64,000 nucleotides of DNA. Source: Candidatus Omnitrophota bacterium (GTDB lineage: Bacteria > Omnitrophota > Gorgyraeia > Gygaellales > Profunditerraquicolaceae). The stretch is from contig JAPLLR010000014.1 of assembly GCA_026387455.1 (NCBI GenBank), forward strand, positions 5,052 through 69,051, written 5' to 3'. Each line of letters starts with the position of its first letter. Positions within the stretch are counted from its first letter, which is position 1. Shown here in pieces: positions 1 to 61,824 of the stretch. The notes under the pieces are model-generated. The model worked only from the letters and a program-made list of their open reading frames with translations. It had not been told where the DNA came from and did no database searches. Both the position numbers and the translations under genes were made by a program.

Positions 1-1019
1 ATGGTATCAAGCGACTGACTGACAATCGCAGACAGGCTATCTTTAACTACTTTGTATCCGGGGTTGACATAACCGTTACGAATTATGTAGTAGTCACCTT
101 TTGCCTTTGTAGGGTCGATACCCATATCCCTGGCAACGTCCTCCTGCCCTTCAAGCACCTTATACAGCGTAAAAACCTGAGTTATCGTACCCCCGTCAAC
201 GTGCATCTCATCATAGGATATGCCACCGGCTTCCACCTTGATAAATACCGGCGGGAACATCATAGGAATTGCGGCTGATGCCAGAATGACTTTCCTAAAA
301 AGCTCAATATCTCCCCTGCAGGCAATAGCCCCCATATCCCATACCACAAATCTCTGGGCATCCAGATAGGTTGTCCCCACATAAAGCCTGCGTCCATGCC
401 TATGTTCATCAGCGATCTTTTTCAATATATCAGCTGTGACATACTTCTGGAGCTGTTTCTCAAGGGGCTTGTTGCTTGCAAAAGAGTCTCCGAACACAGC
501 CTTAAGGGGCCTCCTCATTTTCATTACATCTTTGGTGGACATGGTCGTATATATTTCTTCCACCATCCCATCGTAATCTTTGCCCAGGAATACTAGCGGC
601 GCTATAATGGCCCCTGTTGAGACTCCGGTAACCGCCTTGAATTTTGGCCGGGAACCTTCTTCGGACCAGCCTTTTAAAAGACCCGCGCCATAAGCGCCGT
701 TGGCTGCACCTCCGGAAATAGAAAGCATTGGATAGACCCGCTTGCCTTCGGAATTAACCGAATAATCATCCTTATTCTCCTCCAGAAAAGACTTTACGGC
801 GTTTTTCCTCAATTCAGAATCCTGCATGCCGGCCATGTAGCGTATCTCTGACATATTGCTTACCTGAGTCTTGCCAATCATATCAAATGGTACCGGATGC
901 CTTACTGTGGCGCAACCTACGCACGTAAATACCACGAGAGTAACCAACACAAAGTGTATCGGCTTTGCGCAAAATATGTTTGTTATGATAATTTTAAAAT
1001 TTGAGTTATTATCTAACAT
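1..1019 (-). CDS. patatin-like phospholipase with a lipoprotein-like N-terminus. It is partial: the 3' end runs past the window start.
   Basis: The minus-strand frame is open from the ATG at 1019 to position 1. The translation has a GGxxxG oxyanion motif (SISGGAANGAYGAG) and a GxSxG nucleophile motif (GVSTGA). The N-terminus is hydrophobic with a VFTCVGC lipobox-like sequence. It is not in the ORF track because it is truncated by the window edge. Confidence 0.6.
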   Translation of the reverse strand, partial: MLDNNSNFKIIITNIFCAKPIHFVLVTLVVFTCVGCATVRHPVPFDMIGKTQVSNMSEIRYMAGMQDSELRKNAVKSFLEENKDDYSVNSEGKRVYPMLSISGGAANGAYGAGLLKGWSEEGSRPKFKAVTGVSTGAIIAPLVFLGKDYDGMVEEIYTTMSTKDVMKMRRPLKAVFGDSFASNKPLEKQLQKYVTADILKKIADEHRHGRRLYVGTTYLDAQRFVVWDMGAIACRGDIELFRKVILASAAIPMMFPPVFIKVEAGGISYDEMHVDGGTITQVFTLYKVLEGQEDVARDMGIDPTKAKGDYYIIRNGYVNPGYKVVKDSLSAIVSQSLDT

Positions 1020-1438: not shown

Positions 1439-1509
1439 TTGCCCCGCATGGATTCGAACCATGATAGTCAGATCCAGAATCTGAAGTCCTACCATTAGAC
1501 GACAGGGCA
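1439..1509 (-). tRNA. tRNA-Gln (anticodon CTG)
   Basis: Hand-folded cloverleaf. The acceptor stem is TGCCCTG/CGGGGCA, the T-arm is CATGG-TTCGAAT-CCATG, and the anticodon loop TTCTGGA carries CTG. Confidence 0.8.
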
Positions 1510-1584
1510 GATGGTTGTCTTGTGATTGACAGCGGTTAAATTATAGCTCGGTGAGAAGATTCTTGCAACAGAAATAAAGATCCT

Positions 1585-1619
1585 CAATAAAAAGGGCTCA
1601 AGCGGTTAAATCCAGCCCC
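1585..1619 (-). terminator. intrinsic terminator, copy A of a conserved terminator family
   Basis: On the minus strand the hairpin GGGCUGGAUUUAACCGCUUGAGCCC is followed by UUUUUAUU. It lies downstream of the 1695..2255 gene. Confidence 0.5.
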
Positions 1620-1694
1620 TGTGGGAGAGTAAAAATGCTCAATCAAAACAACAATAGACGATTTTTTATATATTAGAGTTGTCCTGGTTAAATC

Positions 1695-2255
1695 TTAAAA
1701 GAATTTTAATGAATCTACAATGCTCTCAAAATCCTGTTTTGATGCGGTAAATAATTCATTTGGTGCGTTTGAAGAAATCATTAGCATGATTTTGTTTGTA
1801 AAAATGATTGCATAATGATGGGTATATTCTTTCTGTTTAAAAATCATTATTCCATATATTAACCCATCTTTACTGTAGTCTCTTTTACTAAGAACCTCTA
1901 TCCCGCCAATAATTCCCAATTGCTTATAATTCTCCAATATCTCATCCATAGCGCTATTGATTGTTTGATTAGGAATTATTGGGGAGATGAATACTGCAGT
2001 AGATGCACCAGATTTACTGCTACAAAAAACATCTGCTCCTGTGGATGTAACTGAAGGATCATCTCTTTTAATACTATCCCATTCACCAGGGAATGTTATT
2101 TCGTATCCCCATTTATTGTTCGTCCACTTCTTAGGATTTGTAGAATCCATCTGAGCAGTAAAATCCCTACCTGTTTCAAAGCCTTTCTGATTTGAAAAAT
2201 AACCAACGACTAAACTTACAAAAATTAAGATTAAAATCCAATACCAATTCTTCAT
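1695..2255 (-). CDS. hypothetical membrane-anchored protein (N-terminal TM helix)
   Basis: A 186-aa ORF with a hydrophobic N-terminus (WYWILILIFVSLVVGYF). No recognisable catalytic motifs. Confidence 0.5.
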   Translation of the reverse strand: MKNWYWILILIFVSLVVGYFSNQKGFETGRDFTAQMDSTNPKKWTNNKWGYEITFPGEWDSIKRDDPSVTSTGADVFCSSKSGASTAVFISPIIPNQTINSAMDEILENYKQLGIIGGIEVLSKRDYSKDGLIYGIMIFKQKEYTHHYAIIFTNKIMLMISSNAPNELFTASKQDFESIVDSLKFF

Positions 2256-2267
2256 ACTACCTCCTTT

Positions 2268-2651
2268 TTACTTTGGAGTAGATGAAAACTGCTTGTTTAA
2301 TTCTGCGAATGGCTCTGTTATATCAAAATACAAAATAATTATTTCTTTTGATGGCAATACTTCAACAATCATCTCATCATAAGCCTTACCTTCTTTGTCT
2401 TTCAAGCTCTGCTTTACAAGATTCCAATTTTTACCTCCAGTTCCAAACTTAGTTTCTAAATACTGATATTCCTGCTCTATACTTTTATAGTAATCGCCTA
2501 TATATTTTATAATTATTGCTTTCTCAAAACTGCTACCATCCCTACTTGCAGAAACTGCTTGAACATCTTCTTGACTTGATGGTTCTGCGGCAAATAGAGC
2601 AATAGGAAACAATAAAAGAATAATACAGGCTAAGACTGGCTTTAGTTTCAT
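2268..2651 (-). CDS. hypothetical secreted protein with a signal peptide. The start is trimmed to the ATG at 2651.
   Basis: The ORF track gives 2268..2705. The internal ATG at 2651 is preceded by AAGGAGGTG and begins MKLKPVLACIILLLFPIALFAAEP, which reads as a signal peptide. Confidence 0.5.
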   Translation of the reverse strand: MKLKPVLACIILLLFPIALFAAEPSSQEDVQAVSASRDGSSFEKAIIIKYIGDYYKSIEQEYQYLETKFGTGGKNWNLVKQSLKDKEGKAYDEMIVEVLPSKEIIILYFDITEPFAELNKQFSSTPK

Positions 2652-2703
2652 CTGACACCTCCTTTTCTGTTGATATTCTATCACAAATTCTAAAATTGGG
2701 AGC

Positions 2704-2737
2704 AAACAAAAAGGGCTGAACGATTAAGTCCAACCCT
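2704..2737 (-). terminator. intrinsic terminator, copy B. It appears to terminate the candidate ncRNA.
   Basis: The minus-strand hairpin GGGUUGGACUUAAUCGUUCAGCCC is followed by UUUUUGUUUG. The stem carries a compensatory G-U/U-A change relative to the other copies. Confidence 0.45.
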
Positions 2738-3058
2738 TGAAAAATGGTTCACCACACAGAATCCCAAACCTTTCGAAAGGAAAATGGGTTGCAAATTACT
2801 ATAGCTGCCAAGCTGTTAGCTAACTCGTTAACTTGAAACGACAACTGGCTGCCATTCCCTTTCGGGAGTAGACCCTATAGCTTTGCGATGTCCAGCGGTC
2901 AATTCAGAACATAGTCCTAAACACCTAATTTATACATCAGTGCCTAGGGCCTCCCATCCTTTCGGAAGGTTTGATATTATATATAACCTCTAAGCAAGTA
3001 TGACATATTTTAAGATAAGAATCAAGATAGGGGGGCTAAATTAACGTGTGCAAACGAT
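2738..3058 (-). ncRNA. candidate structured non-coding RNA of unknown family
   Basis: A roughly 320-nt non-coding gap lies between terminator copy C (the end of the TPR gene) and terminator copy B. The minus-strand RNA contains three GNRA-like hairpins: ccuuccGAAAggaugg, cucccGAAAggga and cuuucGAAAgg. It has no ORF of 60 aa or more. Confidence 0.3.
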
Positions 3059-3060
3059 AG

Positions 3061-3095
3061 AACAAAAAAGGGCTCAAACGGTTAAATCCCGCCCA
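3061..3095 (-). terminator. intrinsic terminator, copy C
   Basis: The minus-strand hairpin GGGCGGGAUUUAACCGUUUGAGCCC is followed by UUUUUU, immediately after the stop of the 3119..5260 gene. Confidence 0.55.
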
Positions 3096-3118
3096 TTAAG
3101 AACATAGAAAATATTAGT

Positions 3119-5260
3119 CTATTTATCTCTACCTGATGCTTTCTTTAGATTTGCAAGAGATTCGGGATAAATAGTAAACCCTAATGATTCCGCCTTATGC
3201 ACATCTGTCCAAGCCTTATCAAATTCTTTTGCATCATAATAGGCAAGCCCGCGGTTATTATAGACATCTGCAAGATTAGGGTTTATTTCAATGGCTTTGT
3301 TATAGTCAGAGATGGCTTGAGCTAAGTTACCTTGCGCTTTATAAGCAACACCACGATTACTATAAAATTCTGCATCGTTAGGATTTAATTCAATGGCTTT
3401 ATTATAATCAGAGATGGCTTTAATGAAGTTACTTTGTTTGTAATAAGCATGCCCGAGGTTGTTATAGGCTCCTGCAAAGTTAGGATTTACTTCAATGGCC
3501 TTAGTAAAGTCAGAGATTGCTTGAGTGAAATTGCCTTGTTTACCGCAGACAACCCCACGGTCGTTATAAACTACTGCCTCGTAAGGGTTGATTTCAATAG
3601 CCTTGGTATAATCTAAGATGGCTTGAGGCAAATTACCTTGGTTAGCATAGGTGCCCCCACGGTTAAAATAAACAAATCTAAGATTAGGATTTATTTCAAT
3701 GACCTTATTATAGTCAGAGATCGCTTGGGTGAAGTTGCCTTGGTTATCATAGGCAAGCCCACGATTGCAATAAGCCTCTGCATAATTAGGATTTATTTCA
3801 ATGGCCTTAGTATAGTCAGAGATGGCTTGAGGCAAATTGCTTTGCTGGTGATAGACAAGCCCACGGTTATAATAGACATTTGAATATTTAGGATTTATTT
3901 CAACAGCCTTAGTAAAATCAGAGATGGCTTGGGTGAAATTTCCTTTATGGGCGTAGGCAACCCCACGGTTGCTGTAGGAAGCTGGGGCCTTGGGTGATTT
4001 ATACACTACATCATTCCATAGGATAAGCTCATCTTTCCAAATAAGGTTTCTCTTGTAGGTAAGAACCGCATAGCAGGAAATTATGATGAGTAATGCTATA
4101 ACCATTGACTTAAGAGATTTATTCTCAAAAAGATAATATATGAGACTCACCAGGAAAAGGCTAAAACCGACCATTGGCAGATAAAGCCTGTGTTCAAAAA
4201 TCACGCTTCTGATCGGAATAACGCTTGACTCAGGTAAAAGTGTCAAGAAAAACCAGAAGATGCCAAATGAAATTAAGCTATATTTAGCAAATAGCCTGGC
4301 TGCGATAGCCAAGATTGAACCTAAAAGAATAAAGCTGGCTAGAATAGGTAACTCCAATAAGCTTTTGGCAATTGGATAGTCATAGAGAAAATTTTGGTTT
4401 ATTGGTATAAAAAGAAGCCTTAGGTAGGTAACTATAATCCTAAGCTGGGTAAGAAGATAATGCCAGGAGGAAATGTTAGGTGATTCCCCCAAGATCCTTC
4501 GCATTCCTATAAGATCTACGGATTTAGTCAAATACATGGTAAGGGGGATAATCAATAAGGCTAGGAAAAAAGGCAAAAGACTTTTCCAGTTAAGTCTTTC
4601 CTTGGTCTTCAAGAAGCAGATTTCATAAAGTAAAATCATAAAGGGCAGGGTTATAGTCATCTCCTTACTAAACATATCTAAAACTAAAGCTATCAATGAA
4701 CCGCAATAGAAGAGCCTTGAAGCTAGCGAACCTTGCCCCTTCTGTTCTAATAGCCTTGATTTGACATAGAGGCTAAGTGATACCAAGTAAAACAAGGCTG
4801 CCAGAGAAGTTGTTCTCTGGATGATGTAAGTCACTGCCTGGGTTTGAATGGGATGTGTTAGAAAGACTAAGCTAACAAATAAAGCAATAAGCCTAGAGTA
4901 TCTGGTAATCTTCTCACCATTTATTTTAGGCGTAGAGAAGGTAAGCAGGATAAGCCAATAGACTAAGATGGTTGAACCTATGTGGACAGTCAAGTTAAAG
5001 AGATGATAGCCTAATACTTTAAGCTGATAAAAGTGATAGTTAAGAGCAATAGAAAGATAAGTAATAAAGCGGGTAGGCCAGAAATTCCAAATAGCTTTTA
5101 GATTCTGGATATTTCTTATAGCTAGATTATCCACGATTGAACTGGTGTCGTCAAAATGGAAAGGACTATAGAAGGTGTTGGAATATATAAGTATGCCTAA
5201 TAAGAGCAGTGTGCTTATAACCAATAATTTATACTTATGATTAAAGATTCTAACTATCAT
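3119..5260 (-). CDS. multi-pass membrane protein with a C-terminal TPR array. It resembles TMTC/PMT-like GT-C glycosyltransferases.
   Basis: 713 aa. The N-terminal roughly 430 aa are polytopic and contain a FHFDD motif in the first loop. The C-terminus has eight 34-aa TPR units (AISDYNKAIEINPNxAxAYxNRGxAY). The TMTC assignment comes from motif memory, not from a search. Confidence 0.6.
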   Translation of the reverse strand: MIVRIFNHKYKLLVISTLLLLGILIYSNTFYSPFHFDDTSSIVDNLAIRNIQNLKAIWNFWPTRFITYLSIALNYHFYQLKVLGYHLFNLTVHIGSTILVYWLILLTFSTPKINGEKITRYSRLIALFVSLVFLTHPIQTQAVTYIIQRTTSLAALFYLVSLSLYVKSRLLEQKGQGSLASRLFYCGSLIALVLDMFSKEMTITLPFMILLYEICFLKTKERLNWKSLLPFFLALLIIPLTMYLTKSVDLIGMRRILGESPNISSWHYLLTQLRIIVTYLRLLFIPINQNFLYDYPIAKSLLELPILASFILLGSILAIAARLFAKYSLISFGIFWFFLTLLPESSVIPIRSVIFEHRLYLPMVGFSLFLVSLIYYLFENKSLKSMVIALLIIISCYAVLTYKRNLIWKDELILWNDVVYKSPKAPASYSNRGVAYAHKGNFTQAISDFTKAVEINPKYSNVYYNRGLVYHQQSNLPQAISDYTKAIEINPNYAEAYCNRGLAYDNQGNFTQAISDYNKVIEINPNLRFVYFNRGGTYANQGNLPQAILDYTKAIEINPYEAVVYNDRGVVCGKQGNFTQAISDFTKAIEVNPNFAGAYNNLGHAYYKQSNFIKAISDYNKAIELNPNDAEFYSNRGVAYKAQGNLAQAISDYNKAIEINPNLADVYNNRGLAYYDAKEFDKAWTDVHKAESLGFTIYPESLANLKKASGRDK
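3160..3952 (-). repeat. intragenic 102-bp tandem repeats encoding the TPR units
   Basis: A near-periodic DNA repeat is visible, for example attagatttatttcaatggccttagtaaagtcagagat... Confidence 0.6.
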
Positions 5261-5360
5261 AATGATTTAGAATATAAAACTTACAGATTAACCCTCCTCA
5301 ATATATTCTATCACAGAGGGTTGATAATTCAAATTCCAAAAATTGTGAGTAATTTGAGAT

Positions 5361-5395
5361 AAATAGAAAGGGCTCAAACGGTTAAGTCCAGCCCT
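5361..5395 (-). terminator. intrinsic terminator, copy D
   Basis: The minus-strand hairpin GGGCUGGACUUAACCGUUUGAGCCC is followed by UUUCUAUUU, downstream of the 5429..5899 gene. Confidence 0.45.
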
Positions 5396-5428
5396 ATGAG
5401 GTACAAGAAAAATTTATTCCAGGAATTA

Positions 5429-5899
5429 TTAAAAGAAAAGTAGCTTTTTCTTAGGGGGGTCTTTTGGCACTGTAGTAGGGGGTGCCTCTGCCTGAGGCTT
5501 TGGCGCCGGAGCGCTCTGCTTAGCCTTGAGCGTCTCGTTCTCTTTGGTTAAAGCGGTGTTTTCTGTTTTTAGCTGCTCAAGCTTCCACTGAGCATCCTTT
5601 AAATCCGCTTCCATGGCGGCAGACCTTTCTTCGCCTGTCTTAAGCTTATTTTCCAGGTCCGTCTTTAGCTGAGTAAAATTCTGCTGCATCTCTTTATTGG
5701 CTTCCAAGTCCCTCTTAAGCCCATCATTTTCTCCGGTCAGCTTCTGGTTCTCTTCCTCCACCACATCTATCTGAAACTGCTTTTCGTTAAGCTGCTGCAA
5801 AAGCCCAACTTTCTGCTTAAGCAAAACAGCACTTAGCGTCACGCAAGCGATAGCGATAACAACCAACCCGATGTTTAAAATTGCTTTAAAGTTCTTCAT
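5429..5899 (-). CDS. membrane-anchored coiled-coil protein, possibly a DivIC/FtsB-like or lipoprotein
   Basis: 156 aa with an N-terminal TM helix, a long heptad-like Q/E/K/L-rich segment and a Pro-rich C-terminus. Confidence 0.5.
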   Translation of the reverse strand: MKNFKAILNIGLVVIAIACVTLSAVLLKQKVGLLQQLNEKQFQIDVVEEENQKLTGENDGLKRDLEANKEMQQNFTQLKTDLENKLKTGEERSAAMEADLKDAQWKLEQLKTENTALTKENETLKAKQSAPAPKPQAEAPPTTVPKDPPKKKLLFF

Positions 5900-26964: not shown

Positions 26965-27066
26965 GATTACCCCTTGCCTAAACGCTTGTGCTTTTCTGTG
27001 GGGTACCTCATAAAAGCACAAGCAGGCTGCGGGGTATTTTGCCTGTATGAAAATGCTAGCAAAATA
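26965..27066 (-). repeat. two-hairpin structured RNA element, copy B
   Basis: It shares the sequence AAACGCTTG, hairpin H1 with the conserved loop CTGTGGGGTRCCTCA, and hairpin H2 with the stem ATTTTGC/GCAAAAT. The H1 stem differs from copy A by compensatory changes. Confidence 0.45.
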
Positions 27067-27296
27067 AATCCCCGCATTGTGCCGTCGGAAGGATAGTCTG
27101 AACCAAATCTGGTTTCAGGTGGGTGCCTCTCTTGGACGCCAAGGCGTATCAAGAAGTTTTGGCTCCCGTGATAAAGGTGTTGGTTCAACAATTATCGAAT
27201 TTCCAACGAGCACCGCAGGGATTTATAATTTTATCTGCGTTATAAGTATAACACATGTAAGGGGATAAATCAACCCGGTGGAATCCAACCTGCCCC

Positions 27297-47614: not shown

Positions 47615-50233
<2,619 letters not shown>

Positions 50234-61299: not shown

Positions 61300-61322
61300 T
61301 ACACTAACAATTTAACCTTTAA

Positions 61323-61418
61323 GGCCAGCCCAGAGAGGCTGGCAAGGTGAGGAAATGAATCACGCTAAAGTAAAACATAACCGGTCCTTAGCAATAAAAC
61401 AGCTAAGGACCTTTTTTT
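61323..61418 (+). promoter_or_regulatory. PyrR-type transcription attenuator, made of a binding loop and an intrinsic terminator
   Basis: GGCCAGCCCAGAGAGGCUGGCAAGG matches the PyrR binding-loop consensus (UCCAGAGAGGCU...AAGG). It is followed by the hairpin GGUCCUUAGC...GCUAAGGACC and then UUUUUUU, directly upstream of pyrR. Confidence 0.7.

Positions 61419-61824
<406 letters not shown>

Follow-up and report, generated by a model that had tools for sequence, protein, structure and literature searches.

The GEMM-I fold is one in which one or two mutations in the binding pocket can reprogram the ligand specificity of the RNA. In its c-di-GMP-binding form, G20 and C92 make contact with the ligand's two guanines, with C92 forming a Watson-Crick pair with one of them, whereas natural cGAMP riboswitches have A at position 20, and the G20A variant of Vc2 from Vibrio cholerae binds both cGAMP and c-di-GMP (PMC6140456). 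The Vc2 G20A/C92U double mutant binds c-di-AMP (PDB 3MUV; PMC7288161). Natural relatives of GEMM-I with altered pocket nucleotides are also described, namely c-di-GMP-I-GGC (RF03167) and c-di-GMP-I-UAU (clan CL00126). We take these two names to denote positions 20/47/92, in which case the A/A/U pattern of the RNA described below would correspond to neither. We know of no natural GEMM-I member that senses c-di-AMP, and a literature search returned nothing on GEMM variants from Omnitrophota.

The RNA considered here is read from the minus strand of positions 2704-3095 of the window, by which we mean the whole 64,000-nt stretch of Omnitrophota DNA that was analysed. Folding of this interval gives a z-score of -4.8, a value equalled by none of 200 shuffles. 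The initial annotation described a structured, non-coding minus-strand unit with its own terminator, and this reading holds, with transcription being predicted: positions 2738-3060 contain no open reading frame of at least 60 aa, the largest in the open reading frame listing being 30-36 aa, and the terminator copy at the end of the RNA is real. The length of roughly 350 nt needs correction, as the predicted transcript runs for approximately 285 nt from the promoter to the U-tract at 2704. What was detected is a known riboswitch fold; what is unusual about it is an insertion, an A20/U92 pocket and possibly a gene-independent arrangement.

Family membership and architecture of the aptamer

Rfam places the RNA in a known family, c-di-GMP-I (RF01051) or GEMM-I, where the initial annotation had reported no match to any riboswitch and had itself named such a hit as grounds for rejecting its proposal. 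The match is full length, covers 2837-2935 (-) and scores 28.5 bits, with E = 0.0011 in a local search and E = 0.15 when searched against the whole window, and it is sub-threshold, the curated gathering score for this family being 35 bits. That score is, however, exceeded by three related RNAs, L089 (38.9 bits), L065 (50.0 bits) and L069 (61.2 bits), so the family assignment is secure despite the low score of the window copy. A separate match, at 2950-2973, involves the c-di-GMP-I-GGC model and covers its P2 portion (model positions 12-35), although the full-length score of the window RNA lies far below the thresholds of both the GGC and UAU families. In its alignments of L069, L065 and L089, Rfam places 82-84 additional nt within the first hairpin as an insertion, and in the window 63 nt intervene between P2 and P3, which explains why the initial annotation recognised no family. 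We consider it very probable that the RNA in this interval is a homologue of the GEMM-I-type aptamer.

The aptamer (Table 1) shares several parts with Vc2. Both have a GAAA-looped P2 flanked by C22-AAA and G42-A43, the CGCAAAG segment containing A47, a P3 with a receptor-like loop and A82-G83-C84, and a location upstream of a terminator and secreted-protein genes. In the window, the P2 region is laid out as CAAACC-UUCC-GAAA-GGAU-GGGA, with C22-AAA-CCUUCC-GAAA-GGAUGG-GA at 2952-2973 and G45/C46 of the opposing internal loop at 2885-2886; the intercalating base, A47, is at 2884. The P2 hairpin (ccuuccGAAAggaugg) is formed by five standard pairs and one U-U mismatch, and the region deviates from GEMM-I in having U21 for G21, GAG for GAC and an insertion before C44. 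P3, including its AGC 3' strand, has the receptor variant CUAC/AAUG and pairs that covary with those of L065 and L069, and the hairpin ucccGAAAggga (~2854-2865) lies within it with its GAAA at the tip. Three GAAA-capped hairpins had originally been proposed, and those of P2 and P3 are real. The third (CCUUUCGAAAGG, cuuucGAAAgg, ~2769-2780) is instead the palindrome CCUU-UCGA-AAGG with a UCGA loop, for which the homologue has UCGAG.

There are also differences from Vc2. The insertion of Pa and Pb, approximately 63 nt between A43 and C44, separates the two halves of the aptamer, which are adjacent in ordinary members, and turns the P2 internal loop into a multi-helix junction; A20, U21 and U92 stand in place of G20, G21 and C92; and the RNA has a long conserved 3' domain. 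A canonical P1 was not found between the leader and the 3' tail, where the short P1 of Vc2 would be, and position 14 is a U opposite C93. A candidate terminal helix, UAGAG (2988-2992)/UUCUG (2757-2761), appears in the constrained fold of the window RNA and not in that of L089.

Table 1. Features of the RNA and its flanking genes, listed in the direction of transcription of the RNA; nucleotide numbers with a base letter follow Vc2
Feature	Position in window	Strand	Description
TPR-membrane gene	3119-5260		713-aa membrane protein; upstream of the RNA
Intrinsic terminator of TPR-membrane gene	3064-3094	-	Upstream boundary of the RNA unit; one of four copies of a terminator family
Predicted promoter of the RNA	2997-3025	-	-35 TTGATT (3020-3025), 17-nt spacer, extended -10 TGtCATACT (2997-3005)
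5' leader	2976-2993	-	18 nt, UUAGAGGUUAUAUAUAAU; 100% identical in L089
Junction	2970-2975	-	A20 (2975), U21 (2974), C22 (2973), A23-A25 (2970-2972)
P2, GNRA tetraloop helix	2954-2969	-	CCUUCC-GAAA-GGAUGG; partial match to Rfam GGC model; pair 29:38 covaries, U-A to C-G
Pa, first insertion helix	2916-2948	-	CCUAGGCAC / GUGUUUAGG, 15-nt loop; folds on its own
Pb, second insertion helix	2888-2912	-	AUGUUC / GGACAU, 13-nt loop; 100% identical in L089
CGCAAAG	2881-2887	-	C44 G45 C46 A47 A48 A49 G50; invariant in all five sequences; matches Rfam consensus
P3, receptor helix	2843-2882	-	High-posterior Rfam alignment; receptor-like loop CUAC...AAUG; distal CCC-GAAA-GGG
G91 U92 C93	2840-2842	-	U2841 in place of conserved C92
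Conserved 3' domain	2760-2837	-	~80 nt; 85% identical to L089; small hairpin 2818-2833
Intrinsic terminator of the RNA	2704-2738	-	11 pairs, -15.9 kcal/mol, then UUUUUGUUU
Extended -10-like promoter motif	2675-2685	-	TGTGATAGAAT; between the RNA terminator and the 127-aa gene
Ribosome-binding site	2658-2664	-	AAGGAGG; part of the downstream unit 1695-2664
127-aa secreted-protein gene	2268-2651	-	Downstream unit
186-aa membrane-anchored or secreted protein gene	1695-2255	-	Weak PsbP-like match

Homologues were collected with patterns derived from this layout. A scan against one genome per species returned L065 and L069, both from Omnitrophota and with the same split layout; most of the remaining matches were ordinary tandem GEMM-I riboswitches of Bipolaricaulota, Thermotogota and Clostridia, which were set aside as irrelevant. 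A refined pattern (ATCGCAAAG) scanned against metagenomes returned L089, L090 and L087: L089 is closely homologous to the window RNA, L090 has the same sequence as L065, and L087 resembles L069 and is cut by a contig end. Among the other metagenome matches, several were chance occurrences inside GC-rich or coding sequence (L084, L085, L088 and L092) and others were canonical aptamers (L018, L086 and L091), and the pattern scans gave no match in viral contigs.

All five Omnitrophota sequences share one order of elements: (G/A)20-(G/U)21-C22-AAA, P2 (six pairs, GAAA), G42-A43-(C/G), Pa, Pb, CGCAAAG and P3. The two-helix insertion, with Pb ending in AU before CGCAAAG so that its 3' end abuts C44, is present in the window RNA, L089, L065 (= L090), L069 and L087, and a short hairpin equivalent to Pa occupies the same site in L065, L069 and L087. 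The insertion sequences themselves have nothing in common between subtypes. Folded in isolation, the insertions of the window RNA, L089, L069 and L087 form both Pa and Pb. For the L065 insertion, the minimum-energy structure retains Pa but has another hairpin where Pb would be, the pairing AUUCGUU/AACGAAU being possible at higher than minimum energy. We also considered whether two degenerate aptamers lie in tandem (P2 with Pa, Pb with P3) and rejected this reading, since the same P2-Pa-Pb-P3 order occurs in sequences that Rfam treats as one aptamer in its alignments.

Covariation agrees with this architecture. In a core alignment of the five sequences, which was built by hand from chosen outer helix arms and so leans towards structure, 96.9% of cells are standard-paired and 11 pairs change on both sides; none of 500 shuffles reaches these values, and slid controls gave at most two both-side changes. 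Within Pb, four of the six pairs change on both sides with 100% of cells paired, and the fixed position of this helix against C44 is a strong constraint despite the hand-built alignment. The covarying pairs of P3 comprise one at the base of the helix, U-A to C-G, and three distal pairs. Comparison of homologous loci had been suggested as a check on a novel class of RNA; the homologues do share the structure, yet they do so as GEMM-I. We see here an architectural subtype with a two-helix insertion that, among the sequences collected, is confined to Omnitrophota. The insertion demonstrates that the P2 internal loop tolerates a multi-helix junction, and it matters for homology searches, since Rfam scores the window copy under its threshold.

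Regulatory context and a possible conformational switch

Taken as a whole, we think it on balance probable that this RNA is an insertion-type GEMM-I cyclic-dinucleotide aptamer with an altered pocket that regulates the genes downstream of it in cis, with its ligand, promoter, switching direction and regulated target all being predicted. The arrangement would suit a leader: a terminator, 100 nt from the aptamer, a ribosome-binding site and a gene follow, with a promoter-like motif between terminator and gene, and the 127-aa gene with its ribosome-binding site lies 53 nt beyond the U-tract on the same strand, the 186-aa gene being next. In L065 the aptamer and an overlapping terminator lie upstream of a T2SSE/MshEN ATPase gene, and in L069 the aptamer and a terminator lie upstream of a secreted protein. 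The promoter at 2997-3025 would start the RNA near 2990. Its hexamers, TG element and spacing are kept in the alignment with L089; it was not flagged by a consensus scan and matches the consensus at only 8 of 12 positions.

The 3' domain suggests how such a leader might respond to a ligand. Its hairpin at 2763-2788 is complementary to A20-G42, that is to the junction plus P2, and a second self-complementary segment, CUAUAG (2798-2803), can pair with the 5' strand of P3. The unconstrained minimum-energy fold pairs the 3' domain with P2 and has an energy of -80.4 kcal/mol compared with -50.3 kcal/mol for the aptamer fold, making it approximately 30 kcal/mol more stable; an inserted G in L089 at CGAGAAGG would, as we read the alignment, improve the pairing of the 3' domain further. 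Given that this domain is complementary to both aptamer helices and that the alternative fold is the stabler one, a ligand-controlled conformational switch is plausible on these models. Reading from the 5' end, such a unit would consist of promoter, leader, junction, P2, Pa/Pb, CGCAAAG, P3, 3' domain, terminator, ribosome-binding site and two secreted-protein genes. Ligand would lock the tetraloop-receptor fold between P2 and P3, the 3' domain would invade both helices when ligand is absent, and the change of fold would alter how much transcription continues beyond the terminator and reaches the 127-aa and 186-aa genes. The terminator forms in every predicted fold, and a search for antiterminators gave weak competitors only (-13.0 and -10.8 kcal/mol against -15.9 kcal/mol for the terminator). 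The sub-threshold score of the window copy, the U21-C46 mismatch next to the pocket and the U-U mismatch in P2 also count against the cis-regulatory reading. So do the generic character of the terminator and its lack of conservation in L089, the promoter-like motif between terminator and gene, the missing downstream open reading frame in L089, and the lack of such an RNA upstream of the homologues of the 127-aa gene at other loci.

An alternative that we regard as unlikely, albeit one to be taken seriously, is that this is a stand-alone (orphan) small RNA derived from a riboswitch, of approximately 230-285 nt, which is transcribed from a promoter of its own and in every case stops at the terminator. 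The ligand would then toggle the RNA between the aptamer and a long rod-like fold and so alter its stability or a function in trans rather than read-through. The presence of the terminator in all predicted folds would fit such an RNA, as would the strong alternative conformer implied by the unconstrained fold. So would the extent of conservation with L089, which spans the promoter to 2760 and stops before the terminator, and the absence of a downstream open reading frame in L089, where non-coding sequence follows the RNA and leads to a tRNA-Lys, which has a separate promoter, and beyond it to an archease gene. Since the window terminator belongs to a generic family and is followed by a promoter-like motif, a separate promoter for the 127-aa gene is probable. 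A precedent also exists in a preprint that describes control of small-RNA stability by a GEMM-I element (bioRxiv 10.1101/617340). Against this, almost every known member of the family is a cis-acting 5' leader, L065 and L069 are classic leaders, the ribosome-binding site and gene follow the U-tract closely on the same strand, and no target for action in trans is known. If the RNA does prove to be gene-independent, it would be one more case of a riboswitch-derived small RNA.

The binding pocket, its candidate ligand and selection on the core

Pocket positions were mapped to Vc2 numbering through the Rfam alignments, in which the family consensus at the junction is G20 G21 C22 AAA. The window RNA has A20 (2975), U21 (2974, mismatched with C46), A47 (2884) and U92 (2841), and so departs both from the G20/A47/C92 pocket of GEMM-I, which L065 and L069 retain, and, through U92, from the A20 and C92 pair of cGAMP-type pockets, both of which are present in L089. 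In full, the pocket of L089 is A20, G21, A47 and C92, that of L065 and L069 is G20, G21, A47 and C92, and that of L087 begins G20, G21 with an unreadable tail. Comparison with these outgroups indicates that U21 and U92, which are two of only three core differences between the window RNA and L089, arose in the window lineage.

Two described pockets resemble this one in part. Like the cGAMP riboswitches of GEMM-Ib (Geobacter Gs1761 and Gm0970), the window RNA has A at the equivalent of Vc2 G20, and L089 has the full A20/A47/C92 set; unlike them, the window RNA is from Omnitrophota, has the insertion and U92, and shows no link to exoelectrogenesis genes. The engineered Vc2 G20A/C92U RNA has the same two pocket substitutions, here A2975 and U2841, but is a laboratory construct, and the window RNA adds the U21-C46 mismatch and the insertion. 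By analogy with these pockets, c-di-GMP alone is a less likely ligand than a cyclic dinucleotide that contains adenine (3'3'-cGAMP or c-di-AMP). The match between A20/U92 and the c-di-AMP-binding mutant is a lead rather than a finding, as it comes from one sequence of each type, the A20 subtype being known from two sequences only and U92 having been seen once. A crude regex scan of the window found no GGDEF, EAL, HD-GYP, DAC or PilZ motif.

A more specific proposal, in which a natural GEMM-I aptamer has been retuned to an adenine-containing cyclic dinucleotide, with L089 as a cGAMP-type intermediate and the insertion-bearing RNA possibly standing alone, has to be given a low probability. Its appeal is the apparent natural series from G20/C92 through A20/C92 (L089) to A20/U92 (window), in which the core is otherwise almost unchanged and which parallels the laboratory mutants. 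If true, the window RNA would be the first natural member of the GEMM-I fold to sense c-di-AMP, or cGAMP and c-di-AMP, and, if the pocket series is real, it would point to signalling by adenine-containing cyclic dinucleotides in Omnitrophota, an uncultured phylum.

The same pocket changes could be taken as signs of decay, with ligand binding having been lost through G21U, C92U and the P2 mismatch so that a constitutive leader or terminator remnant is left in a low-GC island. The score below the Rfam threshold would suit a relic, as would derived changes that strike the pocket and the neighbouring base pair, and the island around the locus, which is low in GC, does contain repeated regulatory cassettes. 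The comparison with L089, which is alignable from the promoter region to approximately 2760 and not beyond, nevertheless makes this a decidedly improbable explanation. Over the aptamer core the two RNAs differ by 3 substitutions in 122 nt (97.5% identity), distributed as 1/44 in the leader, junction and P2, 0/33 in the linker, Pb and junction, and 2/45 in P3 and the tail, whereas the flanks are 79-85% identical, with 11/57 substitutions in the promoter region and 12/78 in the 3' domain; Pa, with 7/34, is the least conserved part. The core has therefore been under selection, evolving approximately 7 times more slowly than the sequence around it. This speaks against a relic in decay, as neutral change would have been spread evenly, whereas it is the adjacent segments that have diverged by 15-21%. 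The promoter and all four helices are also intact, and the region is identical in an independent Logan assembly (L001), so the window sequence is reliable and the pocket changes are not sequencing errors. Scarcely credible, finally, is an unrelated novel class of structured RNA whose tetraloop-receptor hairpin resembles GEMM-I only by chance: the window match, weak when taken alone over the whole window, could be read in that way, but L089 and two RNAs of the same architecture exceed the curated threshold, the RNA carries the invariant signature CAAACC...GAAA...GGGA...CGCAAAGC, and there is covariation in P2 and P3.

The locus and other elements

The terminator of the RNA is one of four near-identical copies in the window (1590-1613, 2708-2731, 3066-3089 and 5366-5389, all on the minus strand), where 0.01 would be expected by chance. 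Their consensus is GGGCnGGAyUUAACCGnUUGAGCCC followed by U-rich tracts, all four are confined to the first 5.4 kb of the window, and one of them gives a weak Rfam match to CyVA-1 (17.6 bits). The family is common to related contigs (L089 1465-1490; L008 172-244 and 2134-2171), although the copy that ends the RNA is not conserved in L089. The promoter-like motif TTGTGATAGAAT also precedes genes starting at approximately 1019 and 5260, giving three matches against 0.42 expected. In the form (T/C)TGTGATAGAAT it is found at 1072-1083, 2675-2686 and 5305-5316 (-), 20-45 nt upstream of three genes, frequently with AATTTT(A/T)GAATTTG ahead of it. The motif probably acts as a strong promoter specific to this lineage, within a terminator-plus-promoter cassette.

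The 127-aa protein is identical to P0001, which NCBI names as a Candidatus Omnitrophica protein. Neither a GEMM match nor similarity to the RNA was found at L002-L012, the loci of homologues of the 127-aa protein (P0002-P0010), which indicates that the RNA is not tied to that gene family; the sole likeness to the window among these loci was the terminator/promoter cassette in L008. Homologues of the TPR-membrane protein form a very large, paralogue-rich family, and the loci retrieved for it showed unrelated contexts. Within this gene, 3239-4048 contains six tandem copies with a 102-nt period that are 64-76% identical and represent TPR repeats (3 x 34 aa). A tRNA-Gln at 1439-1509 adjoins the low-GC island (approximately 1500-5500 of the window; GC 0.34-0.39 compared with 0.45-0.48 in the flanks), which holds the RNA, the TPR-membrane gene and small secreted-protein genes and may have been acquired horizontally.

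Some of the homologous contigs have features of their own. L087 carries tandem GEMM-type aptamers approximately 220 nt apart (2019-2106 and 2327-2490), of which the first is best described by the c-di-GMP-I-GGC model (48.8 bits, where that model requires 59) and the second is of the insertion type and cut by the contig end. At 440-475 (-) of L069, the 3' strand of P3 (CGCCGGGUUGCC) recurs 55 nt downstream as the terminator's 5' arm (AGCCGGGUUGCC), and the arrangement suggests that the duplicated strands may compete for pairing in a switch. The contig of L065 also encodes an nhaA-I RNA, a candidate Na+ riboswitch, at 5395-5452 (47.2 bits, above the Rfam threshold). Elsewhere in the window, Rfam recognises a 6S/SsrS RNA at 27065-27224 (-), with 61.9 bits and above threshold, and a PyrR binding site, a pyrimidine attenuator, at 61312-61419 (+), with 56.4 bits against a threshold of 54. 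A short tandem array of AAGGCC/AAGGCT with a 12-nt period lies at 49841-49900.
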